From Leptospiraceae bacterium (GTDB lineage: Bacteria > Spirochaetota > Leptospiria > Leptospirales > Leptonemataceae), in the NCBI GenBank assembly GCA_040217195.1, contig JAVJNR010000005.1, forward strand, positions 480,001-544,000: a DNA stretch of 64,000 nucleotides, given 5' to 3'. Position 1 is the stretch's first letter. The number at the start of each line of letters is the position of its first letter. Positions 36,791 through 55,270 of this stretch are shown here, one piece after another. The notes below the pieces were generated by a model that saw nothing but the letters and a program-made list of their open reading frames with translations, was not told the DNA's origin and did not search any database. A program made the translations under genes and the position numbers.

Positions 36791-39700
36791 TCATGAGTAA
36801 CTGGGCTCAATGGATTTTCTTTTCAGAAAGACGTCACCTTTCCATCTGGCAGTGCGATTCTCTGCGACATCGAAACCGCGAATAATGGAATCCCTCAGAT
36901 CTATAGCGTCGACCACTTCATCCAGAGCTCCACTTCCCAGGGCATCCTGGTCTGCCCGAAAACGAGCCCGGTAATCGTCTAGATACTCCGACCTGAGCTT
37001 TCGGGCTTCATGAATTCTTTCTTCGCGTAGTAGCTTCTGGTATTCCTTTTGTTTGAACAGTTCGAAGGCAGCTTCCGCTCCCATGACGGCCATAGTTGCA
37101 TCCCGAAGGGCAATAGAGTAAATGCCTGGTCTGAGGAATCGACTGAATGCATGAATCTGTCGGCCTCCATAATTCTGACGCAGAACCACCGATACGATGG
37201 GAATACTGGAAAGCACATTTACGTCCAGGGACTCCCCACCAATTTGCTGGATTCGCAGTCTTTCCTGTTGCGTTCCAGGTAAGAATCCGGGTGCATTGGA
37301 CAACATCAGCAATGGAAGACCCCGGACATCTATCCTTTCCACAAATTGACGAAACCTTTCTGTACCACGGGCATCCGGCACTCCACCCCGGACCGGCTGA
37401 TCTGCGATTATTGCGATGGACTTTCCATTTAGCCTGGCTGTGGCAGTAATCAGGTTCGGCTCAGGCCTGGAATCCTGCCAGAACATCAGGGTCCGGGAAT
37501 CCACAATACCGCGAAGTATTTCCTTCATATCAAATGGTTGCGATGCCTCGGGTAACTGAAGTTCCAATTCAGGTGGCGTCCCGGTTCGCATAGCAGACAA
37601 TGCATTTATTTCGCTGATTCGCATAAAAGCACTGAAAATGCTGCTCTCCTGAAAATCCGCCGGGCTTTCTGCTTCTATGTCAGGATCCTTATCAGGACTG
37701 ACCAGGATGATGGCCTCCGCATTCTGATTTAGAGCCACACGATTCAGGCCTTCCGGATCCAGCACCATATGGTATGTGGAGCTGCGAAGATTGGCACAGG
37801 TTCGCAGGAAATCCATCCTTGCCCGGATTCGCTCCGTAGCTTCCGTTTCCGGTCCAGGGCGATACCAGTGCTTGCCAAAAAAAAGGATTACTGGAAGGGC
37901 CAATCGATCCGCCGCTCTGAGAAGATCTCTGGCCTTATGGATGGCCGCAATAGATCGAATGCCAGCTTCTCCTGGACCCATGATCAAATACGGCTGACCT
38001 TGAATCCTACCCAGCCAGGCACCCAGAGCCCCCGCGGCGGAATAATTCTCCTTCAACGAGATCAACTCGCCGCCTGTGCAGAAATCCAACAATGCATGGG
38101 TAACATAGCTCCCGAACATAGAATCCGTTTGACCATTGTTTCTCAATGCAGCAGAATCCGGCAGCGAATACGATAATGACTTTTCCTTTTCTGGTTTTTC
38201 CGCGGTCCGCATCAGCCGATGAATTTTTCGAATCTCAAGTATTAACTCCGATTTGTCCCGCGCTATCCTATCAACTGTACCTGTAAATCCCATGACCGGA
38301 GCACCACCGATTTCGTAGTTCGTCAGATCTTCGCCGGTAACGCTACGAATTACATTGGATCCAGTCAGAACTCTAAAAGAACCCGGCTCATCGAGCATAA
38401 CCTGGATCGGGGCCTGGGAAGAGCCGTATACATCCAATCCAGTTGAAGAGCCCATACCTACGGCGGCCAGAAAGAAGGATTCTGGCTGGATTTTTCCATC
38501 GGATTCCACCATGGATTCCACATCTGAAAGAAGTTCATGAATTTCCGGATCCTGGATCTCTGTACACCTTCGAAAGTATTCATCGTATTTCGGACGGTTA
38601 GAGGTCAGTGCATTAAAGAAGAACCCCTCGGCAGCACGATTTAATGCAATCATACCTTCTTTAATATTAGCGCCTGCACCATCGTTCCAGATATAGATAG
38701 GGGTATCCGAGAGATAGGCATAATGCAAAGAGGCAACATACATCTGACCTTCCAGATTTCCCGTTGCGCCACCATTAACCCGCGAATCCTTGATGTAGAA
38801 TAGACAGTCCTGGTTATGCATTTCACCGGCAAACAACCTGCTCCCTATTCGCCTAAGCCGGTTCGGTAAATTGGCCTTCTGGTTTTCACCATCTAATTCC
38901 AGCATCGCTTCGAGACGAGGAAATCGAATTTCCCTGATCGTACCGGGGTCGAAGGTTTCTCGTGCCCAGATCTCTGGAGTCCACTTACCCTTTTCCAGCA
39001 ATCCACGTGTGGCATCGTCAATGTCCGCCGAACCATTCGGATGCACCGGGTCCTCTTCTGGAACCATTTCCAGCCGGGCCTGGCCATTCAGTGCAGAGAT
39101 TCGAAAGAGTCTGCGTTTTGTACTACCCGAATACTCCCTGGTTAAATAATCTGCGATTACTGAATCCACCGGAAGCGGCAAATAATGAACCACCAGCCTG
39201 CGAATCACTTTCATTATACTTTCGTATTGCGAATAGCCATGGATGGATCTAAAGTCCATGGCGGCAATCTGTCCATGCCCAAGTATATGTAACTTCCAGC
39301 GAACCGCTGGATAATCAGACTGCAACTTCTTTAGAGCTTTACTTGCAGACCTGGCAGCCCTTTCCAGATCCGGAATACCCGTATCGTCTCTTAAAACGGA
39401 TTCTGCATTGGTGGAATCATCGTCCAGCCAGACCATACAGTAGCCCGGCTTTCCCTGTTTATGAACATATGTGGCCACATTCCGATGTCCGGAGTCAATT
39501 CGCACCCAGTTCTGTTCATACCTGGAATGCTCTGCACCGGAGATATCCCTTTGATCCAGATCTTCCTTCACAGAATCCAGTTCCAGAAGACGTTCAATCT
39601 CCATGCGTACGAAATCTGGCCATTCAGGTTGCAGGTAATTCTGGATCTGATTTTCACTAATAGGAAGTTGACCAGGATCTAAAGACCGAGAAGATTCCAA

Positions 39701-42616
39701 TGGAACTTTTCGCAACAAGGCGCGGGCACAGCGAGCCAGCCCGGTATCTGTCAGAGAACTCTGTTTCTGCAACCGAACCAGAGCGAATTGCATTTCTTTA
39801 TTTAAGGATACATCGTTCAACCCCTTTAAGAGGGAGACCAGAATACGCCGAATGTCCGGGAATTGTACTCGAGCCCGAATCATATGATACAGGGCCACTC
39901 TCTTCTCTGGCGTTCTTCCTGAATTCGCATCCAGGCCATACCGACGTAACATTCGCGCAGCCGCAGATCTAAAAAAAAGCGAGGGCTGGTATTCCGGATC
40001 ATCCCAGTTTTGAATCAGTCTGTTTAGTTGCCCGAAGTAGGTCTGATCCTTTTCCTTTAATGGTGAAAATAAGAGGTCCAGTGTTGCAAAATCCTGGATC
40101 AATGCAGCCAGGCACTTCTGCTCATTCTCGTCTGGATTCCATTGCCGCCCGGACTGAATACTTGCATCCAGTAAATCTACAACAGGGCCATCCTGCTGAT
40201 AGCCATGGATGAGTGTTCCAGTCAAATGCAGAACTTCCTCTGCTTTGATGGAAGGTTCTTCCATAAGAAAGAGCTCCTTCGGTCCGCTGAAGTAATCTGG
40301 CGGCGTAGCTTCTAATAAATTCTGCTTACCCTCGTCCGGCGAATCCTCTCCGCTTACGCGGAACAATTGTTCTCCCTCGGAGATCGATCTCCCCAGCACC
40401 AGACCATCCGCTGTTTTACCTTTAATCAATTTGTCTTCTTCGCCGTTTTCCAGCAGGAATTCTATCGTTCCATCTCTATCGGCCACAATCTGACATTCCA
40501 TTTTCATGGCAGATATTACAAGTAAGCAGTCCCCTTTACGAACTCCAATTCCAGGTTGCAGCGAGTTTCCGTTTGAGTCCTTACCGAGTTGAACGAATGT
40601 GGCTGCAAAAGGGGCCCGCACGGTGCCTGGTAGGTCCAGTTCCGCTTCCGTGCCCACAGGCTCAATTTGCATCCGATAGTACCGAATACGGCGATCCCTC
40701 TCCATAATTCGAATAGACCGAAATCCGGCGCGATGATCAATTCGAACTGGGGAGCTATATCCATCTCGAATAACCAGAAGGTCATCCATAGAATCCAGTC
40801 TGTTTTGAACTTTCAATTCGCAGTATGGAGTACCATTCACGTATGCATAGTACACTCCTGTACCTTTCCGAAGAAGATCAACAGGAATGGCACCTCCTGC
40901 CATACGCACCCTGTATCCACGGGGCAATTTCTGAGCCTGGATTCGCTCCAGCGCATCACCCAGATCCTGGCATCGAAAGGTTTCTTCTAGATCTCTCTTT
41001 AGCCTGGATTCAAAATCTCCTACGGCCGCAAAGACTGCGGCCTGAACCGGATCCTTTTCTTCCATTCGCTGAAGCTCTTCATTCTGGGTCAGAATCAAGT
41101 TCGAATAGTTACCTTCCACAAAGGATGGATGTCGCACAATGGCCAGGAGCTGATCTACATTTGAAGTGAGTCCTGCAACATATAGCTCGCTCAAAGCCCT
41201 TTCCAGTCTGGAAATAGCTTCATTGCGATCCTTGCCCCGAACGATCAGCTTCCCGATCATGGGGTCATAGTCTGGAAGCACTCGGTCTCCCTGACGAAAT
41301 CCAAAGTCGCAGCGAACACCATTGAAGGTTGGAAGATCCAGTTCGAGAATTCTTCCAGGTGCAGGCGCGAAATCATTCCAGGGATCCTCCGCATAGATTC
41401 TACATTCAATGGCATGTTCCTTCTCTGCAAACCTTAGCCGGAATACTCTTTCGTATGGAATCTCAATTTCCCTGCCATCGTAGTAGAGTAACTGCCATTT
41501 CGCCAGATCTATCTGGAGCGATTGGTCCGTTACTGGATATTCTACCTGTAACCGGGTATTCATCTCCAGAAATCCGAACTGGCCGGTATTGGCATCCAGA
41601 AGAAATTCCACCGTGCCAGCGCCACCTCCCTCGCGATAGCCCGAGCAATGGGCCATGGTTTCCGCCTCCGCCAGAAGTTTCAGCCGGGTATGGTGATCCA
41701 GGAAAGCATCGCCGGACTCTTCGATAATCTTCTGATTTCTGCGCTGAACGGCGCATTTCCGAATTCCGATGGCATGTCCGTTGAAAATCTGAACCTCAAT
41801 GTGCACCGGTACTTCCACCAGCTTTTCCAGGTAGCAATCGCTATTTCCATAGTTCTGCTGACCGATTCGCCTGGCAGACTCCAGGGCCCGGGAAAGCTCA
41901 GATGGATGTTCCACCGCAAACATCCCTTTACCACCTCCACCGGCATCAAGTTTCAATATTACAGGAAAACCTATCCGCTCTGCCTCCTCTTTCGCATGAT
42001 TTTCATCTTTAAGGATGGCGCTTCCTTCGAACAGAGCCACACCATTTTCTCGCGCAAGTCTGCGAGCATCGATCTTATTGCTCACGCGACGCATGGTCTT
42101 TGATCCTGGGCCCATGAACATTAGCCCATCGTTCGTTACCGAGGATACATCCGCATCCTGGTTCAGAAAGCCAGGATGCATTTTAGAATCCGCGGAGGGC
42201 GATTTTTCATGCTCATCCAGTGGAAATTCCGTTTCGTTATTGGCTTCCTCCAGAGCTTCCACAAATCGAAAGTCCTCGGATAGGAAGCCGTACCCTGGGT
42301 AAATTGCATTGGCACCGGTTAGTTTTGCAGCGGCGATGATGGTTGCCGGGTCTGCATAGTTTCGTGCTTCTCCGATGTAGACAACCTGATTGGCAAATTC
42401 AAACCAGGATTGCTGCCGGTCCACATCCGTAACTACAGCGACGGAAGGAATCCCTTCCTCTTTAAGCAAGAAGAAGAATCTTCGAGCTATTTCACCTCGG
42501 TTGGCTACAAGAACCTTCTGCAGTCTTCCCTTTCGTTTGCCCACGGTGGGATCGGTGCACACCGCAGGGTTCAGAACCCTTAGATTTTCCAGAGCAACGG
42601 CAATTTCCTTTTTCAT
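36791..42616 (-). CDS. Single-chain multidomain acyl/acetyl-CoA carboxylase (BC-BCCP-central-CT), 1941 aa
   Basis: BC motifs VANRGEIA, YPGYGFLSE, GGGGKGM, QRRNQKIIEE, EMNTRLQVEY, ECRIYAEDP and YDPMIGKL. Biotin motif SAMKME. CT motifs NDGAGANI, LTGSNVIRSVTGE, NAPGFLPG..QE and AVMGAEAA. Confidence 0.9.
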   Translation of the reverse strand: MKKEIAVALENLRVLNPAVCTDPTVGKRKGRLQKVLVANRGEIARRFFFLLKEEGIPSVAVVTDVDRQQSWFEFANQVVYIGEARNYADPATIIAAAKLTGANAIYPGYGFLSEDFRFVEALEEANNETEFPLDEHEKSPSADSKMHPGFLNQDADVSSVTNDGLMFMGPGSKTMRRVSNKIDARRLARENGVALFEGSAILKDENHAKEEAERIGFPVILKLDAGGGGKGMFAVEHPSELSRALESARRIGQQNYGNSDCYLEKLVEVPVHIEVQIFNGHAIGIRKCAVQRRNQKIIEESGDAFLDHHTRLKLLAEAETMAHCSGYREGGGAGTVEFLLDANTGQFGFLEMNTRLQVEYPVTDQSLQIDLAKWQLLYYDGREIEIPYERVFRLRFAEKEHAIECRIYAEDPWNDFAPAPGRILELDLPTFNGVRCDFGFRQGDRVLPDYDPMIGKLIVRGKDRNEAISRLERALSELYVAGLTSNVDQLLAIVRHPSFVEGNYSNLILTQNEELQRMEEKDPVQAAVFAAVGDFESRLKRDLEETFRCQDLGDALERIQAQKLPRGYRVRMAGGAIPVDLLRKGTGVYYAYVNGTPYCELKVQNRLDSMDDLLVIRDGYSSPVRIDHRAGFRSIRIMERDRRIRYYRMQIEPVGTEAELDLPGTVRAPFAATFVQLGKDSNGNSLQPGIGVRKGDCLLVISAMKMECQIVADRDGTIEFLLENGEEDKLIKGKTADGLVLGRSISEGEQLFRVSGEDSPDEGKQNLLEATPPDYFSGPKELFLMEEPSIKAEEVLHLTGTLIHGYQQDGPVVDLLDASIQSGRQWNPDENEQKCLAALIQDFATLDLLFSPLKEKDQTYFGQLNRLIQNWDDPEYQPSLFFRSAAARMLRRYGLDANSGRTPEKRVALYHMIRARVQFPDIRRILVSLLKGLNDVSLNKEMQFALVRLQKQSSLTDTGLARCARALLRKVPLESSRSLDPGQLPISENQIQNYLQPEWPDFVRMEIERLLELDSVKEDLDQRDISGAEHSRYEQNWVRIDSGHRNVATYVHKQGKPGYCMVWLDDDSTNAESVLRDDTGIPDLERAARSASKALKKLQSDYPAVRWKLHILGHGQIAAMDFRSIHGYSQYESIMKVIRRLVVHYLPLPVDSVIADYLTREYSGSTKRRLFRISALNGQARLEMVPEEDPVHPNGSADIDDATRGLLEKGKWTPEIWARETFDPGTIREIRFPRLEAMLELDGENQKANLPNRLRRIGSRLFAGEMHNQDCLFYIKDSRVNGGATGNLEGQMYVASLHYAYLSDTPIYIWNDGAGANIKEGMIALNRAAEGFFFNALTSNRPKYDEYFRRCTEIQDPEIHELLSDVESMVESDGKIQPESFFLAAVGMGSSTGLDVYGSSQAPIQVMLDEPGSFRVLTGSNVIRSVTGEDLTNYEIGGAPVMGFTGTVDRIARDKSELILEIRKIHRLMRTAEKPEKEKSLSYSLPDSAALRNNGQTDSMFGSYVTHALLDFCTGGELISLKENYSAAGALGAWLGRIQGQPYLIMGPGEAGIRSIAAIHKARDLLRAADRLALPVILFFGKHWYRPGPETEATERIRARMDFLRTCANLRSSTYHMVLDPEGLNRVALNQNAEAIILVSPDKDPDIEAESPADFQESSIFSAFMRISEINALSAMRTGTPPELELQLPEASQPFDMKEILRGIVDSRTLMFWQDSRPEPNLITATARLNGKSIAIIADQPVRGGVPDARGTERFRQFVERIDVRGLPLLMLSNAPGFLPGTQQERLRIQQIGGESLDVNVLSSIPIVSVVLRQNYGGRQIHAFSRFLRPGIYSIALRDATMAVMGAEAAFELFKQKEYQKLLREERIHEARKLRSEYLDDYRARFRADQDALGSGALDEVVDAIDLRDSIIRGFDVAENRTARWKGDVFLKRKSIEPSYS

Positions 42617-43014
42617 ACCATTCTCTCCATGGAAACCTGTGCGATTGCATAATCTACAGAGTGACTCAATGATACTCTGCTTCTTAGTTCATTTGATCTC
42701 ACGAATTGATCGGTTTGGCCGCTAAACTGGAAGAACGGTCTGCCATACTCATCCTTACAGATAGATGCTTCCCGGTATTGAAAGTTAAAGGCAGCCGGGC
42801 TGCTGATTCTTGCTCCATCCAGTGCCTTTAAACAGGCTTCCTTCGCAGCGTACCGAACAGCAAATCTCTGAGCCTGCTGCTGAGGGGCTGCATTCATACA
42901 ATAATCGAATTCTAAGTTCGAAAAGTAATCCTTGAAGAAGGAGGTACCCGGCTCTGCCAGAGCTGCTGCAAATTCAGGTACATGCACGATGTCGACTCCA
43001 ATCCCGTAGATCAT
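42613..43014 (-). CDS. acpS: Holo-ACP synthase (AcpS-type 4'-phosphopantetheinyl transferase)
   Basis: GIGVDIV, RYAAKEACLKAL, GRP, VSLSHS.DYAIA. ATGA overlaps with both neighbours. Confidence 0.92.
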   Translation of the reverse strand: MIYGIGVDIVHVPEFAAALAEPGTSFFKDYFSNLEFDYCMNAAPQQQAQRFAVRYAAKEACLKALDGARISSPAAFNFQYREASICKDEYGRPFFQFSGQTDQFVRSNELRSRVSLSHSVDYAIAQVSMERMV

Positions 43015-46000
43015 TTCGCCACCTCCCTGGTTTCGAAACGACCTTCAGTAGCATTCCAGCGACTATCGGAATTCAGTAGCATTTCTGCTTCTTCGCTTAG
43101 TTCCCGGGGTTCTGGAACCCTTCGCACAAACAGGGGATTCTGTAACCCGGTTCTCATTTCATGAAGTCTTCTCACAATTGAACGGGATCGTTTCTGTAAT
43201 TTGCTTCTATATAGCTTTTTCTCTTCCTGAGTCAAAAAGCTTTCAAACAACACTCCGGAGATTAGCAGGCCCATGGCCCCCACATGTCCAAATCCCAGAG
43301 TACTGAAAAGACCGGCTTTAATTCTACCTTCGCCCAGATGAATCGTTTCATCCGTAAAAAGTAGATGCGAAAATTCGTTCATGGCCCGGTCCACGTTTTG
43401 AAGGCTACGGTTCCCGGGAATTATGCCTGAGTGCATGCATTGTAGCAAACCTATCATCTGCCAGCTGGCCGCCCCGGCCTTGGAATGCCCTGTGTAGGAC
43501 TTCTGCGACACCACCGGAAGTGGATTTCCGGGATGCCGACCCAGCTGTTTCTGTATTGTTTCGTGGAGACGGTTTTCGTTTACATCGTTCGCCTTCGTGG
43601 ATGTATCATGTTTGTAAATGACACCTATGTCATCCGCACCCAGTCCGAAATTTGCAAGCGCCTCTCCCAGCGGGGAACGGCTCTGACAGGTATCACTTGC
43701 AGCCGGGCCAGATACTTCATTTCCTGTCTTTATATCAGAAACGCTTGAATGCGCTGCTTTCGCCTCCGGTCCCGCTACGGACTCCCGGGCTATGGAAAGC
43801 AATCCCTGACCGGGGGCTGGAATGGACATATGTAATCCATCTGAATGGGTAGCTGACATGCCCACCATGCCATACACCGGCAGGCCCATTTCGAATGCCA
43901 GGTCTCCCCGGGCCAGAAGTAGCAACCCTCCACCATGACTTTCAACGAATCCCCCTCTTCTAGAATCGTTGGGTCGTGACATTCTTGCCGGCTCAATCCC
44001 TCGGTCCAGCATCTCATTGGTCTTCGCAGTGGCTTCCATATCGCCAAAGCCAATCATTCCCTGGGCACTTATTTCATCGAAACCTCCGGCCATCAAAAAC
44101 TTGGCCTTTCCGGACTGAAATAGATTCATAGCCATGTCCAGAGATACCCCTCCAGTGGCACATGCAGCTACTGGAGTTTGTATGGGCCCGGTTGAACCCA
44201 GGTAGGCTGTTACTGCGTAGGCTACAGTTACGTTGATTAGAGTTTCCTGCAATGCATCGTTCTGTCTTGTGCGATTGAGCAAATGATCTGTGAAAACCGA
44301 GTTCAGCCTGGAAGTGCCTCCCAGGCCCCCTCCCACTGTGCTGCCTGCATCCGATGGATGAATGTATTCGAAGAGCTCCGACGGTTCCATGCCGGCCTGC
44401 AAAAAGGCCTCCGCTGTGGAAATAAGATTAAACAGAGTCACCCGATCTACCTGTCGGATCAGCTCCCTGGATAAACCGTAACGCTCCGGATCCCATCCAT
44501 CCGGGATCTGTCCGGCCACAAAGCGGTCCAGTCCCACACTCTTAAGCACTCGAATGGTAGTTCCTGCTTTTCTGCGTATAAACCAGCGATCCTTTTGCGA
44601 ATCATGATAGACATCTGTGTCCTCTGGAAGAGCGTCCTGAAATTCTCTGCCTTCGCCTTCATCGGCCACAGGAATATAGAAATCCTCTTCCAGAACAATT
44701 TCGGAATAAACTGGCTGATGGCCAGGATCAAATCCAGTCACCTCCGGGTTTACTAATCTAATTCCGGTGCCGCTTCGAAATCGATCTCCGTATTTTCGAG
44801 AAACTTCCGCTGCGTTAACAATTTCTCCTGATTCCGTATCGACCCAGAAGTAGCCTTCGCCCGTATTCTTATACTCAATCAGTCCCATGGTCCAGGCAAG
44901 CTCCACCGAAGCTTCCAGAGAAAGGTCCCCTCCTTGCTCCAGCTCCCATCGAGTCCTGGTGCTACCTCCCGGGCTCACTTCACCGAATCCAACCACGCAT
45001 ACAATGTCCTCCAGTGACAGGTTGGATTTAATTTCCGTCTGTTCAACCGGTCCGAGCGCTATACTGGAACTATACAGTTCCAGAGGTTTCACCGTTCTTA
45101 CCGACTGTTTCTCCTCGATGTTCAGTTCGAGGGCATAGAGAGCTCGAGCCCTGGTAGATTTTCTTAGAAGCTCTTCGCGAATGGATTGCACTTTTTCGCG
45201 GAGTCCGGTAAGATTTGTTAGTCCACCGGTCAGATCTGCCATCAAGGGCGATGGATCACTCCAGGCATTGAAGCCCATTATACTGGTTATCAGCTCTGCC
45301 ATTTCCTGACTGTGAAAGGTGCGAATCCCATGTACTTTTTCCATCTCAGGGGCTACCACATCGTTCAGTGCCATCAGGCCTGTGCTTCGCACCCAGCCGA
45401 TTCGCACAGCTTTCAATGAACAATAGCGTCCCCACTGTTCGTATTCCGAGTACCACTTTCGCAACATCACTTCCAGAGCCAATTTCGACTCAGCATAAAG
45501 TCCATCTTTGCCGAAGGCTCCATGGTTTGGTGACAGAGGCAGAATAAACTGAAAAGGTCCCTTCAGAAATCGCTTCCTGTACTGCTCCACCACTTCAGCA
45601 AGCAAAGACTGAACTCCCAAAAGCATAACTCGAATACCGGCAAGGCTATCTGGTCCTACAGAAGCCAGGTCCCCTTCCTCCCCTATGGCTCCAAAGGGCA
45701 GAATAGTATCTGGTATCCAATCCTGGTCAAAGCAATACTCCACCAGATCCCGGATGTCTGAAAGCGAGCCCTGGGAAAAAGGGATTACTATTAGGCTGGA
45801 ATCCTTTGAAGCAGAGATCTGATACACATCCTTGTAAAACTCCAACCGATCATCCGAGTAGGTGCTTGTTCCCAGAATCACCGTGGCGCCGGAACTGAGT
45901 AGATTTCGCACTATATCAAGAGCTATTGAGCCCGGACCAGCTCCGGTCACCAGGATGCAACGACCGGACAGGTTCATTGGATTGCTTGATGATGGTAATT

Positions 46001-49000
46001 GTTTCAAAAACTCTTCAACTGAACAATCATAGTCCTGAAAGCTCTGGCCTTCATCATTGCTTCGTCGAAAGGATGCATGGCCGGAGTCAAAAAGTTCCGG
46101 AATTACATTTCCAGGCTCTTCGATGGATCGCAGGTTTAGACTTCCGTCCCTGGATATCTCGGTTTCGCATTGGATCCGTCCGTGTATAGAATAGTATCCG
46201 CTGCTGGCTATCTGTAGATCCTCTTTGAGTTCCTGAACTCTAATCTCTACATCTGGATTTCTATGGTGGGCCTTACGCTCCATGTAGCCAAGCAAGGATT
46301 CAAGACTATCTGCACAGCTGCGGCTCTGACGCTTCAGGCTTTCGCTGAAATGGGGTCGATTTCCGGTCATTAGTTCCCAGAATTCGCAATAAAGATTCTT
46401 ACGAATCCAGGGCAGGGGGTTGTCGAAATGAACTACCTTCCGAGAGTCAAACCTTGATTCCAGTATGGACTTGTATTGTTTACCATGCTCTTTGTCGCTT
46501 GTTACGGAAGCATTTGCCAGAGTTGTTCGATCCTGAACGATGAGTGGCTCAAAGGGATCCTGTCCCAGTAGTTGCTGGCTTGTAGCCCGAATCAGTCGAG
46601 CAAAGCTACCTTCCAATCCAAAGTACCTGGCTTCCAGTTCCGCCAGAGCGGCTGAATCCACGGCCACTGCTCCTGTCCGGGAATCATCGCTCTGGATTTG
46701 AATTCCCTTTTCCTGGGCAAGGCTGTGCAGGGCCTTTTCCAGCCATTGATCGGCCTGATCTTTGCTTGAGAATCTCTTATCCACAGGCAGAGAACCCAGA
46801 TTTCCATCCCGGATGGACGGACCACTGCGGGCCATTAATGGAAACCTCACAGTTGCCAGAATGATTAAACCTTCTGGCGCAGACTTTGATCTAAGAAATT
46901 CCAGCACTTCCGGTCGATTTCGCCCGGGGGGCATAAATTCTTTTAGAAAATTCTCAAATGCAGCTCGAAGATAAGGCCCAGGTCCACCGTAGGAAACCTT
47001 TCGCCTCAATAGATCAATTACATCGCTGAGCCTCTTTTCTTGAACTCCTTCCAGTTCAGATGTATTGAACTCAGACGCCAGATCTGCAAGAACCTGATTT
47101 CTCTTACTCGAATTACCTCCGAAGATTTCATCAATGGTTTCCGATTCCTGAATTTGTTCTGCTCTAAGCTCAGCCTTCCAGGCAAGAAGCGCAAAAAGCC
47201 CCTCCTTCGCATCCATCAATTTTCCAGGATCAGCGCTTTCAGACTGAATTTGTTTTGTCCCTTTCTCGCTTAAATCCTTCGCGTCAGGTTCCTCTTGCCC
47301 CACAGATGCTGATGGGCGGCTTACCTTTGACTCCGGCTTATCGCTTTGGCTGATTTCCATTTTCGTTTCAGATTCAACCGGTGCCTTCGCCTCGTCCAAC
47401 TCCGATTCAGACCGAGCAATTGCCGATTCGGCGGACTCTTTACTTCTATGGTCTTCGTAAAGATCAAATGCATCTTCCATTCTCTGGAAAACCCGGGCTT
47501 CATCCTCTTCTACGTGCAGAACCTCCACAGCATGAGGCAGATCCATTTGTTTCAGAGTCTGACGTGCCATACCGGCCAGGTCCCCCCTTGCTCCGATATC
47601 GATTACTCGGCGAATACCCTTTTCCTGAAACAGATAATCCTGGGTTTGAATCCACAACACTGGCTGCGCGAACTGATAAGCCAATAGCTCAATTAGCAAA
47701 AGCTTTCTGGCCTCTGCCAGAGGGATGGAACTATCCTGGATTTCTCTTATCGCAGAGGAACCGGTCTTACTCTGCACAGCCCTTAAGAATTCATCTGTCA
47801 GAGTAAAGGGTTGAGCTACCAGGTTGGGAATATAGCGTCCGTCCAGTGTTTCCAGACCGTTAACGGAATTCAGGTTTTGCTGAAGCACTTCCCGGAACGC
47901 TGAAACTCCCGGCAATAGAATACTTGAATGAAAAGGTACATCGATTCCCGGAATTCGCACAAAGGTCTTATGACCTCCGGATACTTTCCGCAAATCAGCC
48001 TCCAGTGCTTCAATAGCATCAATGTGTCCTGTGACTGAATACTGACGATCTCGAATATTGAAGTTTACAATCTCCAGGGGCTTATCCACTTTAGCCCGCG
48101 TTTCAGCCACCAGTTCTTCAATTCGCATTTCTGAAAGTCCGGCCTTTTTGTTTCCCAGAACCACAGTCATGCGATAGGGACTATTTCCATGCTCGTCGCG
48201 CTCCACCAGAGACTGCATCGTAAGACCACGATGGTATACGATTCGAATAACCGATTCCAGCGGAAGTATACCCTGACTGGCCAGAGCCGCGTACTCTCCC
48301 AGAGAATGTCCGGCAAAGCAAGCATCCCGGGATAACAAGCCGTTTTCTCTGAGGATAGCCCAGTCTGCCATGGCTTTGGCAACCAATCCGACCTGAGTGA
48401 ACTGAGTAAGATTCAATACGCCCTTTGGGTGTCGGAATTTTTCATGCCCAATGCGAACCTCCTCGGGATTGTTTCTAACTATGTCCAGGATGGAAAATCC
48501 AAGCTCCTCTGTTGTTACCACTTCTGCTTGATCCCAGACTTGCCGGGCGGATGCGTACCGGTCATAGAATGCCATACCCATTCCCTGGGACTGAGACCCC
48601 TGGCCGGTAAATACATAGGCCGTGGGCACCTGCTCTATGGTTGCCTGTCCCAGGTATACCTGAACTCCACTCTCGGTTATCGCCTCCACTCTAAGGTTTT
48701 TCCTTCCTCTTGAGTTGGACACATGATAGGTGCGGATGAAGAATTCCTGTCCCGGGTGCAGGGGCGCCTGAAACTGAGATTTGAGCGAAGTAACCCTGGA
48801 TGCATCCCCGGCTGCCACATTTCGCACCAGAGAGTCCAGGATTCGCGCAGATGTCCACATGCCGTGAACTATGGGACTGGAGAACCCGGCCTCCAGGGCC
48901 ATATGCGAATCCAGATGAATTGGATTCAGATCACCGGAAGCATTTGCATAATCGTTCATGCTTGATGGGCTCTCATCTTTTTCAGAGTAGATCAGTACAG

Positions 49001-52000
49001 GCTTTTCCAGGGTCACTTCTTCGGAGCTCACCGGAAACAGATTCAGTAGCTTTTCCAGTGGACTGTTTTTACCCTTCCAGTCCAGGTTCACTCGACCCAC
49101 AGGTAGTCCCTGTTGATTCAATTTTCCTTGCACAATCCAATGGGAAGTTCCATCCACCCGGCGCTTAATAATGGCTTTTTCTGGATGGATGGAGACTCTC
49201 CAACCAGGTCCGATTGTTCCGCATTTAAGAAAATCCAGGCCCCTTAAAAATGAAACCGATGCATCGTCTGGCGGTAGAAATTCCAGAGTTTCAGGCCGGT
49301 ATATCTCTGTATTCTCAGTTGGCGCTTCGCCGCGAATCAAGAATCCAGAAACGAAGGATAGAATCACATCCTGCGTTTGATTTCGCAGTTCTCCTCGGAT
49401 TTGAACTTCTTTGCCACTTGCGTTCCAGAGGATTCGCTCTATCCGGGCTCTTGCCTGCACCCTTTCGCCGGTTTTCCATTGAAAGTATCCCTTACCCCAT
49501 TTGAACTCTTGAAATAAATGCACAAGTTGCATTACATCGCCGGCTGCTTCGGGCTCGAATAGGGAGCGAAGCATGGGTTTCCAGCCAGCCACGATGGCGA
49601 AGGAACTCAGAGCACTGCTCTGTCCGTCCACAGCTGCGCGAAACGATTCCAATTGCCTGTCATCCAGGATAAATGAGTACTCCTGGCCTCCGGGGCTAGC
49701 TTCTTGCAAGTCCCAGAGAGATTGATAAAAATCCTGGGAGGTTTTTACAGGAGAGCTGAGTTCCAGAAATCGGGCCCAGGGAAGCCCACTATCCTGAAAT
49801 TGACGCAAAAAGGCAGGACCACCAGACAGAGGAAAGCGGCGAAACAGTATTGAATCACCTTCCAGACTGAGCTCTGCCATAACATGCTTTTTGCCTCTGA
49901 CTCCGGTTCTATAGGCGGTGAGCGCAACCAGGCTACCATCCTTTCCAAGATCCCAGCCCAGACTCATCCCTTCCTCGAGAGCAAAGGCCTGCGGTATTGT
50001 AGAGAGTATCTTTTTATGACCTCGAACCACGAAACGAGCCTTTAGAAGAGTGCAAAGTATGCCCCTGCTTTGAAGACACAATTCGGAAAGCTTATCCAGT
50101 CCGTCTGCGATTGCAGCGTGGGCGGTTTCAGATTCTGAGAGATGGAGTACTTCGTCGGAAGGTTTGCTAGATGCGAAGACCGCCTGCTCAAAGCTCTTGA
50201 GTATCTCTACGACTGGCTCATTCGCTTTTTGAATTCCTGCAACTGCAACTGGTCCAGGAATCCAGGCGCACTGGTCTGGATCAACTCCTTCGCAATGGGA
50301 GTACCAGAGAGAATCCGACCGATACCATTTCAGAAGAGATTCATCCAGGTAAGGAATAAAATTTACCGGCTTACCCGGTTTACGACAAACCTCATAGAAA
50401 TATTGCACATCTTCGGGAAGTACCGGGAGATCAGAAATGCCCGGATGATCAGAGCGAAGTGATTCAATAAAATCAGCAGGACTATTTGAATCGCGCTGCA
50501 GAACAGATTCCTCTTCGGTCTCAGCAAATCTACTCTGTACTCTTTCCAGAAGATTATGAAATCTATCTCTAAATGAGACATCGATAAAAGGCTCATCTGG
50601 CCAGAGACCTTCCGGAGCCTTTAATCGATCACCGGGGGCAGTAAGCTCCAGAAACCTGCGAAGCATCTGTTCATAAGTCATTTCCTCGACGTCACCAAAG
50701 TATGGTTTCACCGTTGCATTTAAAGACTCAATAATGCGAAGGCGATTTTCGGCGATTATTTGATTCGCTTTCTCTCCACCGGCATCGGACAGAAGCTTTT
50801 CCAGATAGCTGGAAGTAGCAGACCAATGATTGGAAGCGTAATAGATATCTGCCCCCAGACCGGAACGACCGGAGACCACATCGGAACCTTTCTGATTCTT
50901 TCGAACATCAGACCAATCGCTTCCGGACAGATTGACCAGTGCTTCCTTAACAGTATTGCTAGTGGCCGCCTCCCTGGCTGCCATCAGTCGGGTGCCAAGA
51001 AAGACTCCATCCACCGGCATGCATGTCTCTGACCAGGTCCCCTGTAGCCATTGATTGGCCTGCTCCGGACTATGAATCCCTCCCCCCACTGTAAGGATTA
51101 CATTCTCTCTGGAGCGAATCCTCGAATAGTTTCGCTCGATTAGTTCCTCAAGATTCTCCCAGCTATGATGCCCGCCGGCCGCTCCACCTTCTACCTGCAT
51201 AATGAGCTTTCGTTCCGGTTTTTCAGCTGCGATTTCCAGAACCTGTGCGATCTGCTTATGGGTGCCTGGCTTAAAGGAGTTAATACAGATACCGACGGAT
51301 TCCAATCCGTCCAGAATTTCCAGAGCTTCTTTTTTGTCCGGAATACCTGCAGATATGGTTACTCCATCGATGGGATAACCTTCCTGTTTTAGTTTGCGCA
51401 CCAGAGGATACTGCAGATTCCAGAGATAAGCATCCAGATACAGTAGATTGACAATAATTCCCTGACCGGACGGTAATTGATTTGCCTGACGCTGAATTCG
51501 CTGTCTGAATATCGCCTCCGTTACCTGGCCTCCTCCGGCCCACTCTACAATTCTTCCTTCGCAGGCAGCAGAAAGCACAATATCAATTTCTGCAGTAGTA
51601 GGCGTCATACCACCGCCAAAAATAGGTGGCCTTCCGGTAAACCTGGAATACGCGTTCAATGCGATGCAACTTCCATCTGGAAGTTTACCCTGCACTGGGG
51701 CATAATCCTTCCAGGGCCTGGTGCGGCGAAAAGATCCGTTTATCAGTTTATCAATTCCGGATTTCTTATGTAAACCTGGTTGAATCGCACCCACCGGCTC
51801 CAGATAGGGCCTACTTATGGCGCGAATGCTTTCCCCGGGACCAAAGCTAAGACAGTAAGAGGCCCCCAGACCGGCTGCTTTTTGCATCAGTCTGTGCCAA
51901 TCCACCTTTCGAATAGTCGAAGCTTCTACCACATATTGTTCCAGATCACCTACTTCCTGCAGATTACGGCCATTCAAAGGATCCAAAACCGGAATCTTGA

Positions 52001-52901
52001 GGTTCTGACCTTTTAAATGCAGTCCGATTCGCCCCACATCGTCGGCCAGTCGGTCCACTGCTTTTTGCATAAAAGACGAATGATAGGGGCCAGAAACATT
52101 GAGGAAATCCAGAGCATTGGCCAGGTCCTCATGCTTTCTCGACAGGTACGAAGCAAATCGCGCCATGGATGCAGTATGACCGGAAATAATAAAAGAATCT
52201 GCACCGTTTCTTAGACCAACCTCTAACGGTATTTCTATTCCGTTGAGCTTCTGAAAATCATCCAGCACGGTATCCAGACGCTCCGGGCTTTCGCATCGAA
52301 TGGAAGCCATGGGAGTAGGTCTTGGTCCCTGCCAGCCAGAAAGCAAATCGTGCCCCAGTTTCACTGGAGCGAAAGCTTCTCTGGTGCGATACCCCTGCCA
52401 GAATAGTAAACGGATCAGATCCGAGAATGCTTTGAGAAAGTCCGTTCCTTCCAGACCCTGGGCAACCAGCAAAGCTCCATGAATGCCCTGGGAATGACCC
52501 ACCGCAGCCACGGTATTCTGTAGCAATGAGTTCTGATCGATGCCTGAGTTCAGGAATCTGAGGTAGTGAGCTACTTGAGTCGCCAGGATCAATGGTCCGG
52601 AGTACACACCCTGGGCCAGTGCCGGTTCATTGGTTCGAATGGAACCTTCCAGCCAGCTCTTTAGATCATAGCCCAGACTGAACCATTCCGGATTCAATTG
52701 CCGGGCATCGGAGTATTCCTTGTTTAATGTTTCAAATAAACAGTTAAAGAATTCCCCCAGTTCTGGAGAATATTGCTGATATACCTGCTTTAGTTCTCCT
52801 AGATAGCCGGCCCCCTGGCCGCCAAACTGAATTAGAAAGGAGGCCTGCCCCTTTTCAATTTCTCGGGTTAATGTATTCGATTGAATTTGTGCTTCTTTCA
52901 T
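43011..52901 (-). CDS. fas: Single-chain type I fatty acid synthase (mycobacterial/fungal architecture AT-ER-DH-MPT-ACP-KR-KS), about 3300 aa
   Basis: AT FGGQG/GHSQG; FMN-ER GGMTPTT, FKPG, EGGAAGGHHSWE; DH SGDLNPIH/HGMWT; MPT FTGQGSQ/GHSLGEY/IDVPFHS; ACP GGNSSKRNQ; KR TGAGPGSIA/YAESK; KS ACATG, HDTST, GHSK. ATG 52901 chosen. Confidence 0.93.
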   Translation of the reverse strand: MKEAQIQSNTLTREIEKGQASFLIQFGGQGAGYLGELKQVYQQYSPELGEFFNCLFETLNKEYSDARQLNPEWFSLGYDLKSWLEGSIRTNEPALAQGVYSGPLILATQVAHYLRFLNSGIDQNSLLQNTVAAVGHSQGIHGALLVAQGLEGTDFLKAFSDLIRLLFWQGYRTREAFAPVKLGHDLLSGWQGPRPTPMASIRCESPERLDTVLDDFQKLNGIEIPLEVGLRNGADSFIISGHTASMARFASYLSRKHEDLANALDFLNVSGPYHSSFMQKAVDRLADDVGRIGLHLKGQNLKIPVLDPLNGRNLQEVGDLEQYVVEASTIRKVDWHRLMQKAAGLGASYCLSFGPGESIRAISRPYLEPVGAIQPGLHKKSGIDKLINGSFRRTRPWKDYAPVQGKLPDGSCIALNAYSRFTGRPPIFGGGMTPTTAEIDIVLSAACEGRIVEWAGGGQVTEAIFRQRIQRQANQLPSGQGIIVNLLYLDAYLWNLQYPLVRKLKQEGYPIDGVTISAGIPDKKEALEILDGLESVGICINSFKPGTHKQIAQVLEIAAEKPERKLIMQVEGGAAGGHHSWENLEELIERNYSRIRSRENVILTVGGGIHSPEQANQWLQGTWSETCMPVDGVFLGTRLMAAREAATSNTVKEALVNLSGSDWSDVRKNQKGSDVVSGRSGLGADIYYASNHWSATSSYLEKLLSDAGGEKANQIIAENRLRIIESLNATVKPYFGDVEEMTYEQMLRRFLELTAPGDRLKAPEGLWPDEPFIDVSFRDRFHNLLERVQSRFAETEEESVLQRDSNSPADFIESLRSDHPGISDLPVLPEDVQYFYEVCRKPGKPVNFIPYLDESLLKWYRSDSLWYSHCEGVDPDQCAWIPGPVAVAGIQKANEPVVEILKSFEQAVFASSKPSDEVLHLSESETAHAAIADGLDKLSELCLQSRGILCTLLKARFVVRGHKKILSTIPQAFALEEGMSLGWDLGKDGSLVALTAYRTGVRGKKHVMAELSLEGDSILFRRFPLSGGPAFLRQFQDSGLPWARFLELSSPVKTSQDFYQSLWDLQEASPGGQEYSFILDDRQLESFRAAVDGQSSALSSFAIVAGWKPMLRSLFEPEAAGDVMQLVHLFQEFKWGKGYFQWKTGERVQARARIERILWNASGKEVQIRGELRNQTQDVILSFVSGFLIRGEAPTENTEIYRPETLEFLPPDDASVSFLRGLDFLKCGTIGPGWRVSIHPEKAIIKRRVDGTSHWIVQGKLNQQGLPVGRVNLDWKGKNSPLEKLLNLFPVSSEEVTLEKPVLIYSEKDESPSSMNDYANASGDLNPIHLDSHMALEAGFSSPIVHGMWTSARILDSLVRNVAAGDASRVTSLKSQFQAPLHPGQEFFIRTYHVSNSRGRKNLRVEAITESGVQVYLGQATIEQVPTAYVFTGQGSQSQGMGMAFYDRYASARQVWDQAEVVTTEELGFSILDIVRNNPEEVRIGHEKFRHPKGVLNLTQFTQVGLVAKAMADWAILRENGLLSRDACFAGHSLGEYAALASQGILPLESVIRIVYHRGLTMQSLVERDEHGNSPYRMTVVLGNKKAGLSEMRIEELVAETRAKVDKPLEIVNFNIRDRQYSVTGHIDAIEALEADLRKVSGGHKTFVRIPGIDVPFHSSILLPGVSAFREVLQQNLNSVNGLETLDGRYIPNLVAQPFTLTDEFLRAVQSKTGSSAIREIQDSSIPLAEARKLLLIELLAYQFAQPVLWIQTQDYLFQEKGIRRVIDIGARGDLAGMARQTLKQMDLPHAVEVLHVEEDEARVFQRMEDAFDLYEDHRSKESAESAIARSESELDEAKAPVESETKMEISQSDKPESKVSRPSASVGQEEPDAKDLSEKGTKQIQSESADPGKLMDAKEGLFALLAWKAELRAEQIQESETIDEIFGGNSSKRNQVLADLASEFNTSELEGVQEKRLSDVIDLLRRKVSYGGPGPYLRAAFENFLKEFMPPGRNRPEVLEFLRSKSAPEGLIILATVRFPLMARSGPSIRDGNLGSLPVDKRFSSKDQADQWLEKALHSLAQEKGIQIQSDDSRTGAVAVDSAALAELEARYFGLEGSFARLIRATSQQLLGQDPFEPLIVQDRTTLANASVTSDKEHGKQYKSILESRFDSRKVVHFDNPLPWIRKNLYCEFWELMTGNRPHFSESLKRQSRSCADSLESLLGYMERKAHHRNPDVEIRVQELKEDLQIASSGYYSIHGRIQCETEISRDGSLNLRSIEEPGNVIPELFDSGHASFRRSNDEGQSFQDYDCSVEEFLKQLPSSSNPMNLSGRCILVTGAGPGSIALDIVRNLLSSGATVILGTSTYSDDRLEFYKDVYQISASKDSSLIVIPFSQGSLSDIRDLVEYCFDQDWIPDTILPFGAIGEEGDLASVGPDSLAGIRVMLLGVQSLLAEVVEQYRKRFLKGPFQFILPLSPNHGAFGKDGLYAESKLALEVMLRKWYSEYEQWGRYCSLKAVRIGWVRSTGLMALNDVVAPEMEKVHGIRTFHSQEMAELITSIMGFNAWSDPSPLMADLTGGLTNLTGLREKVQSIREELLRKSTRARALYALELNIEEKQSVRTVKPLELYSSSIALGPVEQTEIKSNLSLEDIVCVVGFGEVSPGGSTRTRWELEQGGDLSLEASVELAWTMGLIEYKNTGEGYFWVDTESGEIVNAAEVSRKYGDRFRSGTGIRLVNPEVTGFDPGHQPVYSEIVLEEDFYIPVADEGEGREFQDALPEDTDVYHDSQKDRWFIRRKAGTTIRVLKSVGLDRFVAGQIPDGWDPERYGLSRELIRQVDRVTLFNLISTAEAFLQAGMEPSELFEYIHPSDAGSTVGGGLGGTSRLNSVFTDHLLNRTRQNDALQETLINVTVAYAVTAYLGSTGPIQTPVAACATGGVSLDMAMNLFQSGKAKFLMAGGFDEISAQGMIGFGDMEATAKTNEMLDRGIEPARMSRPNDSRRGGFVESHGGGLLLLARGDLAFEMGLPVYGMVGMSATHSDGLHMSIPAPGQGLLSIARESVAGPEAKAAHSSVSDIKTGNEVSGPAASDTCQSRSPLGEALANFGLGADDIGVIYKHDTSTKANDVNENRLHETIQKQLGRHPGNPLPVVSQKSYTGHSKAGAASWQMIGLLQCMHSGIIPGNRSLQNVDRAMNEFSHLLFTDETIHLGEGRIKAGLFSTLGFGHVGAMGLLISGVLFESFLTQEEKKLYRSKLQKRSRSIVRRLHEMRTGLQNPLFVRRVPEPRELSEEAEMLLNSDSRWNATEGRFETREVAK

Positions 52902-52966
52902 GATTCTTTCCGTGTCAAAAGAATCATTGCATGCTTTTAATCTGCAACTCAATGGTCCAGGCGAAC

Positions 52967-53004
52967 ATTGATGGGATGCGACAAATGATTGGTTAACTGC
53001 GCCA
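52967..53004 (-). promoter_or_regulatory. Tandem 17-bp direct repeats (21-bp period), candidate AraC operator upstream of fas
   Basis: Minus strand reads TGGCGCAGTTAACCAAT-N4-TGTCGCATCCCATCAAT. Confidence 0.55.
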
Positions 53005-53166
53005 AAGCACTGTTTCGATTAGGGATTGGGGCCTGGGCGCATTTCGCGACTATCGTAATGCGATTTCTAACTCTCAGAAAATTGGCTGTATTACGAATTC
53101 GGGGGATGGATCCTTAGAGGCATTACTAGAAATACGAAGAAAGGAACAAGAAAACTGTTGGGGACG

Positions 53167-54213
53167 TTACTGTTCTTTCAAAGTCTTTCGGTAGGAACCG
53201 GGAGTAGAACCGAACCAGCCCTGGAATGCATGCTGAAAGGAACTTGCATCCGAAAAACCTAAAAGATGAGCAATTTCTATCATTCGGATATCTTCTTTAA
53301 TATAATGTTGAACCAGAGTCTTTCGTGTTTCTTCCAGAAGATCCCGAAAGCTGGTTCCTTCTGCCTTTAGCTTACGCTGAAGAGTACGACGATCCATAAA
53401 AAGCTGATCCGCCACATCATCAATACCGGTCTTTCCCTCGGGAAGGAGCCTGAGTAGCAATTCCTGCACTTGGTGCCCCAGACCGGTGCGTACTTCCAGT
53501 TGCTGTAGAAGTTGTTCAGCTCTGCCTTCCATATATCGCTGAATATAGGAGTTGGCCGTATTCAATTCACAGGATAAATATTTTCGATCCAAAACCAGCC
53601 CAGTATCAGGCTGCTTGAACTTGATTTCCGTTTGAAAGATTTCTTCGTATTTCTTCTTATAGCCTGGATCCGCATGTGCGTATCTAACCTCGTTCAGCTC
53701 GATACGTTTGCCGGTAAATTTCTTGATATAATGGTAGCATTGAACCGTATAATGCTCGGACATCCAGCGGTTCTGGTGGGCCACGGATGTGTTAATATAG
53801 TGAATACCGGCTGTTTTCTGACCTTCTCTAAATTCAAAGCGATCTGTCTCGCAGACCAGACGGGCAAATCTAGCCCAGTGACGAAGTGCTGCTCGCAAAT
53901 TGGAACAGAGCATTACGATGTGGGTCACAAAGTGCATTTGCGAATCCCCGTAATGAGAAAATAAATCCAATCCCAGAGAGGGGTTATCGGTGCGCTCCAC
54001 AGCCAATTGCCATAGATCCAGGCATTGGCGCAGGCCAATTCGCATATCCGGATCATCGAAGGAGAAGTCCTGCAGCCCAATATTCTGGCAGATTTCCTGC
54101 AACTCCATGCCATTCTTCTGTAGAAGTGCAATGAGAACTGGATTGACCATGGATGAGGTGGTGGGCTGCACGCTATGCTGAGAATTCTTTTCGTCGCTTG
54201 AAATGGCCTTCAT
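53167..54213 (-). CDS. AraC family regulator with Arabinose_bd_2-type N-terminal domain
   Basis: DPDMRI...LW..AV..T.NP.LGL N-terminus. C-terminal VADQLFMDRRTLQRKLKAEGTSF...IAHLLGFSDASSFQHAF..WFG.TP. Confidence 0.9.
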   Translation of the reverse strand: MKAISSDEKNSQHSVQPTTSSMVNPVLIALLQKNGMELQEICQNIGLQDFSFDDPDMRIGLRQCLDLWQLAVERTDNPSLGLDLFSHYGDSQMHFVTHIVMLCSNLRAALRHWARFARLVCETDRFEFREGQKTAGIHYINTSVAHQNRWMSEHYTVQCYHYIKKFTGKRIELNEVRYAHADPGYKKKYEEIFQTEIKFKQPDTGLVLDRKYLSCELNTANSYIQRYMEGRAEQLLQQLEVRTGLGHQVQELLLRLLPEGKTGIDDVADQLFMDRRTLQRKLKAEGTSFRDLLEETRKTLVQHYIKEDIRMIEIAHLLGFSDASSFQHAFQGWFGSTPGSYRKTLKEQ

Positions 54214-54691: not shown

Positions 54692-55270
54692 CTACTTGCT
54701 CATTCGGTTTTCTTCTGCGCGCTTCCTGGCTTCTTCGATCAACTCCCAGTCCGGCTCTTTCTGCCACCATTTGCGATTGTTCGGCCAATCCTTCAGATCC
54801 ACCTTCTCCAGGTTGGGACTGTTCGCAAGGATCGCTTCCATTAGATCACCACCACTGACGACGCCCACCCCGAACTCCAGGCTTCTTTTCGGGTCCTTGC
54901 TCCGCACCTTCACTATGCCTCCCAGGGCAAGGGCTTTATGCACGGCGACGATCTCATCGTAGTTGATACGGACCCAGTGTCGGAAAATCCGTTTACCTTC
55001 AATACCCTCTGCATCGCGCATTACCAGGTTTGATGTTTTAAACAATCCTAATAGGAAATCTCCGGTAAAGATAACCCCTCCCGCACCAAAAACGAAGAAT
55101 CCGAAGGTCCAGAAATTGGTCGGCTCCCTTATGAAATTGAGCGCTGAATGATAGATAATCGCCCAGCCCAATCCGAAAAACCATACAGAAACCACCGTTC
55201 CTACGATCAGGGAAATAGCGTTCCCGCCCACATTTCGGTGTCTTGCCGGTCTCATTGTATTCTTGGCCAT
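54692..55270 (-). CDS. 2-TM membrane protein, candidate immunity protein
   Basis: GGGAGG RBS, two TMs and a PH-like soluble C-terminus. The start overlaps the last 19 bp of the giant ORF. Confidence 0.65.
   Translation of the reverse strand: MAKNTMRPARHRNVGGNAISLIVGTVVSVWFFGLGWAIIYHSALNFIREPTNFWTFGFFVFGAGGVIFTGDFLLGLFKTSNLVMRDAEGIEGKRIFRHWVRINYDEIVAVHKALALGGIVKVRSKDPKRSLEFGVGVVSGGDLMEAILANSPNLEKVDLKDWPNNRKWWQKEPDWELIEEARKRAEENRMSK

Follow-up and report, generated by a model that had tools for sequence, protein, structure and literature searches.

Among the closest described counterparts of the locus reported here are two large single-chain enzymes. The type I fatty acid synthase (FAS I) of Mycobacterium smegmatis/tuberculosis (PDB 4v8v, 4v8l, 6gjc) is one chain without a fused phosphopantetheinyl transferase (PPT), and in CMN bacteria acpS adjoins fas; sections of Fischer 2020 name bacterial FAS I for CMN bacteria only. 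Eukaryotic acetyl-CoA carboxylase (ACC; yeast Acc1 5csl/5csa, human ACC1 8xkz) runs in the order biotin carboxylase (BC), BT, biotin carboxyl carrier protein (BCCP), central domain and carboxyltransferase (CT). Its central domain is described as without homologues outside eukaryotic ACC in passages of Hunkeler 2016 (PMC4833862), where it is called unique and CDC1/CDC2 are suggested to stem from a duplication, and of Lombard and Moreira 2011 (PMC3199775), where an alpha-linker-beta fusion hypothesis for ACC origin is reported and ACC is given as not found in spirochaetes. The first bacterial multidomain ACC, according to passages of Livieri 2019 (PMC6491548), is SACE_4237, whose CT groups with eukaryotic CTs. 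Here we describe a block of three genes, fas-acpS-carboxylase, in a window of 64,000 nucleotides (the whole stretch analysed; contig JAVJNR010000005.1, positions 480,001 to 544,000; G000:C4:480001-544000) from a Leptospiraceae bacterium.

The coupled block and its synthase

The source genome (G000; 4.61 Mb, 10 contigs, 93.7% complete) carries three consecutive minus-strand open reading frames (ORFs) for a FAS I, an AcpS and a carboxylase. Both junctions are ATGA overlaps (43011-43014 and 42613-42616) that can be read directly in the sequence, as the initial annotation of this DNA had it.

43011..52901, minus strand: single-chain type I fatty acid synthase, AT-ER-DH-MPT-ACP-KR-KS, without fused PPT; 3296 aa from ATG
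42613..43014, minus strand: AcpS-type phosphopantetheinyl transferase, 133 aa; PF01648, TIGR00556 over cut-off; ATGA overlap with fas
36791..42616, minus strand: single-chain biotin-dependent acyl-CoA carboxylase, 1941 aa; ATGA overlap with acpS
53167..54213, minus strand: AraC-family regulator, 266 bases upstream of fas

The block is real and conserved, and judging from sequence comparisons we consider it likely that it works as a de novo fatty-acid pathway. The fas frame stays open upstream to a TTG at 52952. The AraC-family gene is a possible regulator of the block; among the neighbourhoods examined, only those of the two same-genus genomes have it in this position. No sigma-70-like promoter or terminator was found in 52850-53250, and Rfam gave 0 matches in the window.

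The same genes with the same flanks are present in G002 and G005, and GC is flat across the block region. A contig of run X1, which is possibly the source sample, extends over 41645-44034 and spans both gene junctions, and four runs placed on this DNA cover 30/30 bins, with joints listed in 0/4. There is next to no chance that the block is an assembly artefact, a contaminant or dead cargo: the genome is in 10 contigs and no single public contig covers the whole block, but the frames are open, with no internal stop in the matches listed, and synteny across 39 copies refutes the idea. A chimeric contig, named as a danger in the initial annotation, is ruled out by the conserved synteny, the junction-bridging contig and the flat GC. 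Marine metagenomes contain this DNA too: at least one fifth of the sampled words is present in each of 6 runs, which come from 4 studies. No RNA dataset is listed among those containing it, which bears in no way on expression.

In the synthase, Pfam places AT (SAT), ER (its helical part, PF08354), DH (MaoC dehydratase), MPT (acyl transferase), ACP and KS in this order, and KR was placed by motif and by alignment to mycobacterial FAS. Catalytic residues are present in all seven domains: AT S137, the ER H577 motif, DH H1329, MPT S1533, ACP S1931, KR Y2469/K2473 and KS C2914/H3098/H3139. The nucleophiles and the catalytic His, Tyr and Lys are conserved in 51-52 of 52 aligned FAS homologues, the exception being ACP S1931 (36/52). 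These Pfam, motif and alignment checks bear out the claim of intact catalytic motifs in the mycobacterial/fungal domain order. As in the CMN enzymes, the PPT is not fused and AcpS is separate; within FAS homologues, PF01648 occurs only on matches of 3661-4307 aa. No thioesterase family was found in the Pfam scan of the window proteins, and the MPT motifs are intact.

Among solved structures, mycobacterial FAS I comes closest (1494-1536 bits), with the fungal alpha and beta chains at 720 and 608 bits. The nearest homologues with names are labelled Leptospiraceae, Leptospirales or Leptospira, and from these labels we take the order to be Leptospirales. The KS is C-terminal and of the FAS I type, with FAS I matches dominating, which settles the question of an origin in polyketide synthases (PKS) or PUFA synthases raised earlier; both were rejected (PfaA 37 bits against a cut-off of 1010, Pks13 54 against 2100). 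A Bacteroidales FabF, the sole return of a scan of the genome collection with a single FAS protein, was a false lead.

In a FastTree tree of the KR-KS region (106 of 177 qualifying sequences, 921 columns, after removal of 11 close relatives and of 60 among the 78 rows that were partial or of eukaryotic length), the window protein and the Leptospira proteins form one clade (1.0), apart from the Mycobacterium/Williamsia clade. The eukaryotic FAS clade (1.0) lies on the window protein's side of the split from Actinobacteria (0.97). Other bacterial FAS proteins branch closer to the eukaryotic clade, with support at the relevant nodes of only 0.14 and 0.21, so that no special link of Leptospirales FAS to fungi is shown. 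Among the neighbours in the tree are a protein from Polyangiales and a cluster that contains Uabimicrobium (20 proteins were looked up). By these comparisons the synthase is a bacterial enzyme of mycobacterial architecture, and one of many scattered bacterial FAS I lineages. The description of it as eukaryote-like stands for the shared domain order; the architecture without fused PPT is mycobacterial, and a eukaryote-sister position hangs on those two nodes. It differs from CMN FAS I in being ~200 aa longer, in being coupled to a single-chain carboxylase and in its host, a diderm with LpxA in which no FAS II was found.

Two further forms of FAS I sequence were seen. In metagenomic loci L064 and L116, FAS I lies in two consecutive ORFs (1545+1245 aa; 1505+1140 aa), a candidate fission or an assembly error. 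A separate protein of 386 aa that resembles the N-terminal AT of FAS I (G000:C2:187512-188672, minus strand; L030:10513-11673) has PF16073 with GHSQG intact and is matched in 41/41 genomes searched, synthase-free ones included; its gene adjoins the giant carboxylase in G007, G010 and G015. It is a candidate for CoA-to-ACP acyl transfer for lipid A in fatty-acid auxotrophs.

Architecture of the carboxylase

On present comparisons the carboxylase is the novel part of the block, a family of its own with an architecture for which we found no description. Its parts, with the central domain and lobes assigned partly from predicted models, are as follows.

41099..42523, minus strand: biotin carboxylase domain, residues 32-506
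40352..41059, minus strand: BT domain and biotin carrier domain, residues ~520-755, K705
39017..40294, minus strand: shortened ACC-type central domain, residues ~775-1200; helical AC1-AC2/CDN-like part and one alpha/beta AC5/CDC2-like part
38192..38989, minus strand: CT N-lobe, residues ~1210-1475, PCC-beta-like
37580..38131, minus strand: extra degenerate CT lobe, residues ~1496-1679, a C-lobe copy without GFxPG
36842..37555, minus strand: intact CT C-lobe, residues ~1688-1925; GFLPG 1777-1781, YGGRQI 1816-1821

The catalytic parts resemble two-subunit carboxylases. The closest sequences to the BC-BT-BCCP part and the CT lobes are propionyl-CoA carboxylase (PCC) alpha/beta and Streptomyces AccB/PccB; the window enzyme differs from these in being fused around a central domain and in its extra CT lobe. 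Residues 1-700 align in a single stretch to the alpha subunits of PCC and MCC, the biotinyl motif AMKME stands at residues 703-707, and none of the best 60 PDB matches is a eukaryotic ACC. A profile of 14 CT sequences scores PCC-beta-type subunits at 204 bits and eukaryotic ACC CTs at 14-17 bits, and the single CT sequence gave no match to a eukaryotic ACC CT at E 0.01; orthology with the eukaryotic CT was rejected on these scores. The single-chain carboxylase LCC likewise has BC, BCCP and CT in one chain, but it is of 1093 aa (~120 kDa), has no central domain and shows a weak CT match (63 bits); it was ruled out for this protein of 1941 aa with a central domain, and separate LCC-size genes are present in relatives. 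The family comprises at least 111 clusters (187 by profile), some labelled Smithellaceae, Burkholderiales or Leptonema. Among 1487 plasmid records having any match, 0 hold 80% of the carboxylase.

The region between BCCP and CT is predicted to have an ACC fold. An AlphaFold2 model of residues 500-1240 (40 sequences, pLDDT 79) finds human and yeast ACC as its best match (Foldseek E 4e-16), and a structure search against 48,161 chains has ACC in each of its five leading rows, with yeast BT-BCCP-AC1-5 best (Z 16.4, 501 aligned, rmsd 10.4). Residues 993-1195 match CDC2 (Z 10.8, rmsd 3.2, 161 aligned), and residues 993-1213, set against an AC3-AC5 structure, match AC5 only (Z 10.0, rmsd 4.2, 169 aligned). 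Residues 770-973 match AC1-AC2 (Z 9.9, rmsd 5.7, 123 aligned), which counts for less because the matching parts are helical. HHalign, which makes no use of the model, agrees with the fold: it pairs the central region with its counterpart in metagenomic multidomain ACCs (96%, E 4.8e-9), which is ~170 aa longer. PF08326 does not match the carboxylase, the ESM Atlas returned no usable match for the central domain, its profile found none of the solved sequences (best E 0.04), and HHalign detected no repeat between its halves. The domain is of ~430 aa against ~700 in eukaryotic ACC, with one alpha/beta domain in place of the CDC1 and CDC2 pair and 11-16% identity. Thus the eukaryote-like character claimed at the outset survives in the single-chain BC-BT-BCCP-central-CT order and in the predicted central-domain fold, and fails for the CT sequence.

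The CT model (pLDDT 80, pTM 0.81) has three lobes. The N-lobe and the middle lobe pack as one ordinary CT subunit (AccD6: Z 28.8, rmsd 3.5, 368 aligned). By HHalign (84%, E 7e-6), the middle lobe is a second copy of the C-lobe, one from which GFxPG is missing; in the third lobe, four of the five positions of this motif are invariant. The CT N-lobe showed no repeat relation to the other lobes in HHalign. In solved CTs, one subunit contributes its N-lobe and a different subunit its C-lobe to the active site between them, and it is on this ground that we propose that the third lobe of the modelled CT may supply the active site in cis.

The layout is not unique to Leptospirales. In the best 80 of 486 confirmed metagenomic FAS I candidates, an AcpS match is present at 78 loci and a single-chain carboxylase lies directly behind in 13. 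The eight of these carboxylases with a complete CT on the contig score 0-20 bits on the Leptospirales CT profile, and PF08326 is passed by three of the seven scanned. By sequence they belong to another family, which is probably the SACE_4237 kind, and the carboxylases of loci L055-L103 served as stand-ins for SACE_4237-type enzymes in our comparisons. They are of similar size, single-chain, encoded behind fas-acpS, and homologous to the window carboxylase in the central domain (HHalign), with the difference in length given above; their CTs reach 20-25 bits on the window C-lobe profile, against 127-135 for PCC-beta-annotated subunits. One of them, a 1643-aa multidomain carboxylase behind fas-acpS at L103:11075-16006, is ~200 aa below its relatives' length and may have another shortened central domain.

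Trees of BC and of the C-lobe, with no eukaryotic sequence among the rows, separate the Leptospirales carboxylases from the metagenomic multidomain ACCs (97-100). Both families fall on one side of a branch with support of 39 for BC (27 of 42 rows kept) and 85 for the C-lobe (a quick IQ-TREE run with 33 rows and a long-branch warning), which allows a sister relation.

The carboxylase fits the proposed fusion intermediate and is a candidate, as yet unproven by these trees, for an intermediate in ACC evolution. An equally open alternative is descent from a multidomain ACC, with loss of some of the central domain and acquisition of a PCC-type CT. A far-reaching reading would make the enzyme a surviving step towards eukaryotic ACC, with PCC-like alpha and beta fused around a central domain that predates the CDC1/CDC2 duplication, as the fusion hypothesis would have it. 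The third lobe would then provide in cis the biotin-binding lobe that comes from a partner subunit in solved carboxyltransferases, a new holoenzyme architecture, and together with FAS I the enzyme would make a whole Leptospira clade prototrophic for fatty acids, contrary to the textbook view; we regard this reading as tentative and, taken whole, rather doubtful. The carboxylase does fill a gap, as spirochaetes have been held to be without ACC and the central domain to be unique to eukaryotic ACC. With its one-alpha/beta central domain and PCC-like catalytic parts, it allows the fusion-and-duplication model of how ACC arose to be put to the test in both structures and trees.

Distribution and malonyl-CoA supply in the order

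We counted FAS I by PF08354 and the carboxylase by its CT in 156 genomes of the order; the genomes are related, and the co-occurrence counts ignore kinship. FAS I is found in 37 genomes and the carboxylase in 52, including 36 of the 37 with FAS I. A synteny survey placed the carboxylase 11.9-13.7 kb downstream on the same strand for 39 of 42 FAS copies, the three exceptions being fragmented assemblies. The full fas-acpS-carboxylase order was read in G002, G005, G008, G016, G017 and G026; G012 has a different gene after fas-acpS. Among 401 genomes sampled from the phylum, FAS I occurs in this taxonomic order only (genus g21 20/20, g22 3/30, g20 1/19). Named carriers include L. licerasiae, fainei, broomii, inadai, kmetyi and levettii; we take most of them to belong to the P2 subclade, and genus g21 presumably corresponds to P2. 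The 1.9-Mb single-contig genome G008 (83% complete) keeps the 17-kb block (G008:C1:1059923-1076791), and FabH, FabA/Z and any other KS were not found in it.

No other complete route was found in the source genome. AccA and AccD gave no match over the cut-off and FabA/Z was not found; the sole PF00698 match is the MPT of the synthase and the sole match spanning the PF00109 profile is its KS. A tblastn search of G000 with FabA, FabZ and FabF of G010 returned nothing at 1e-4. Since FabD, FabA/Z and FabF were not found, the block is the only de novo route found in G000. The earlier proposal of a cassette for malonyl-CoA, ACP priming and synthesis thus gains from both the coupled genes and this lack of AccA/AccD, FabD, FabA/Z and FabF.

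The carboxylase would, moreover, be the order's general supplier of malonyl-CoA. AccA was found in 0/156 genomes (the control matched 8/14), and all 52 carboxylase genomes encode a malonyl-CoA consumer. The 16 that lack FAS I have a standalone FabD (14) or a PKS transferase (2), and 12 of them have a FabA/FabZ pair; among the 104 genomes without carboxylase, FAS I is found in 1 and a FabD-type match in 11. A FAS II operon, FabD-FabL-like-FabA-FabG-FabZ-FabF-acyltransferase-PPTase, ends in the giant carboxylase in G010 and G066.

L033:2272-15806: conserved FAS II operon
L157:4921-17232: conserved FAS II operon
L155:2231-9045: conserved FAS II operon

These operons bear on the substrate. It is very unlikely that the enzyme is mainly a propionyl-CoA carboxylase and that the synthase makes methyl-branched chains from methylmalonyl-CoA. 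Its CT is closest in sequence and fold to PCC-beta and transcarboxylase 12S, its N-terminal 700 residues align to PCC/MCC alpha, and SACE_4237, in passages of PMC6491548, accepts both acetyl- and propionyl-CoA; yet the carboxylase ends FAS II operons with FabA, FabZ and FabF in genomes that lack AccA, and G000 has separate two-subunit carboxylase genes. I1821, moreover, aligns with an Ile of Streptomyces AccB and is kept in 65 of 67 homologues. We take its position to be the site that admits acetyl-CoA, and it holds Ile, not Asp. From the gene context we infer that acetyl-CoA is the substrate.

Several loci of possible lipid genes were noted in passing. At G000:C4:346156-348186, a fabG-like gene, acpP and an RNase III-like gene lie together with no fabD or fabF nearby; these gene names come partly from BLAST partners and are putative. 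At G000:C5:449350-455221, a gene for a 420-aa protein lies between two FabH-like genes; judged by their sequence starts alone, further genes there may encode an acyl-CoA ligase, an SDR and a membrane acyltransferase, and the locus is a candidate small lipid pathway. In G024 (L035:3600-20000), the giant carboxylase stands beside a presumed biotin-ligase-like gene, so called from a motif, and ~16 kb from PKS genes. In G075, it is on a contig with a PKS transferase.

Proposed function and neighbouring features

We propose that the three genes form a co-translated unit that would make fatty acids from acetyl-CoA. The carboxylase would use ATP and bicarbonate to form carboxybiotin at K705 and pass the carboxyl group to acetyl-CoA, giving malonyl-CoA, and AcpS would prime the synthase's own ACP at S1931. 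FAS I would load acetyl (AT) and malonyl (MPT) units, cycle through KS-KR-DH-ER and release acyl-CoA via MPT, and is probably a barrel-shaped hexamer like the mycobacterial enzyme. The acyl-CoA would go to membrane lipids when external fatty acids are scarce. The genes, their motifs, the synteny, the co-occurrence and the lack of the other routes searched are seen in the sequences themselves; co-transcription, the type and length of product, the barrel and growth without fatty acids we infer.

Several observations weigh against a general de novo pathway of this kind. The CT is most like PCC beta subunits, and the FAS II operon of G021 (94% complete) comes with no giant carboxylase, so there are other sources of malonyl-CoA in the order. 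G000 keeps two FabH-like genes, an ACP and FabG. G004, of the same genus and 92% complete, lacks the block, which is thus dispensable, and two complete FAS I and carboxylase blocks are present in each of G126, G129, G130, G131 and G134, which hints at specialised products. Passages of PMC13008252 (2026) state that Leptospira cannot make fatty acids de novo, and we found no report in the literature of block-carrying strains as exceptions to this auxotrophy. A passage of Huntemann 2013 has Leptonema illini growing in trypticase soy broth without serum.

The same observations feed a rival explanation, in which the product is a dedicated lipid, for example a hydroxylated, short or very long chain that goes into lipid A, lipoproteins or something secreted, or in which the block is seldom expressed, and bulk membranes still need outside fatty acids. 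Patchy presence (37/156), the five genomes with two copies, the lack of the block in G004, the auxotrophy stated in print and the occurrence of the same carboxylase beside PKS clusters all speak for it. We nevertheless think it improbable: the set of reducing domains is complete with motifs intact, the six neighbourhoods read have no tailoring, transport or thioesterase genes in common, and the block is present in 20/20 sampled g21 genomes and holds the sole KS found in the 1.9-Mb genome.

Dependence on fatty acids is a basic trait in the common view of Leptospira; named, cultured species nevertheless carry a complete synthase and carboxylase, and the trait can therefore be tested by a single labelling experiment. 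Should carriers of the block prove to make fatty acids, a wide gap in metabolism among Leptospira clades has so far been overlooked. Our literature search turned up no paper that deals with FAS I or with this carboxylase in Leptospirales. Bukhari 2014 reportedly surveyed bacterial FAS I, and Leptospira may already be among its entries. Term searches of the main texts of Ricaldi 2012, Fouts 2016 and Vincent 2019 gave no mention of the block, and their supplements may list the genes.

Two neighbours of the block are shared with G002 and G005. A 5035-aa ORF on the minus strand, the longest in the genome, occupies 55252-63810 of the window and continues beyond it (G000:C4:535252-550359); Pfam and NCBIfam gave no match in the 2852 aa scanned, and the ORF is in the same place in both genomes at 53-55% identity. 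On the other side of the block, at 34533-35366 on the plus strand, lies a gene for an extracellular medium-chain polyhydroxyalkanoate (PHA) depolymerase (NF050057 over cut-off), which is syntenic in both.

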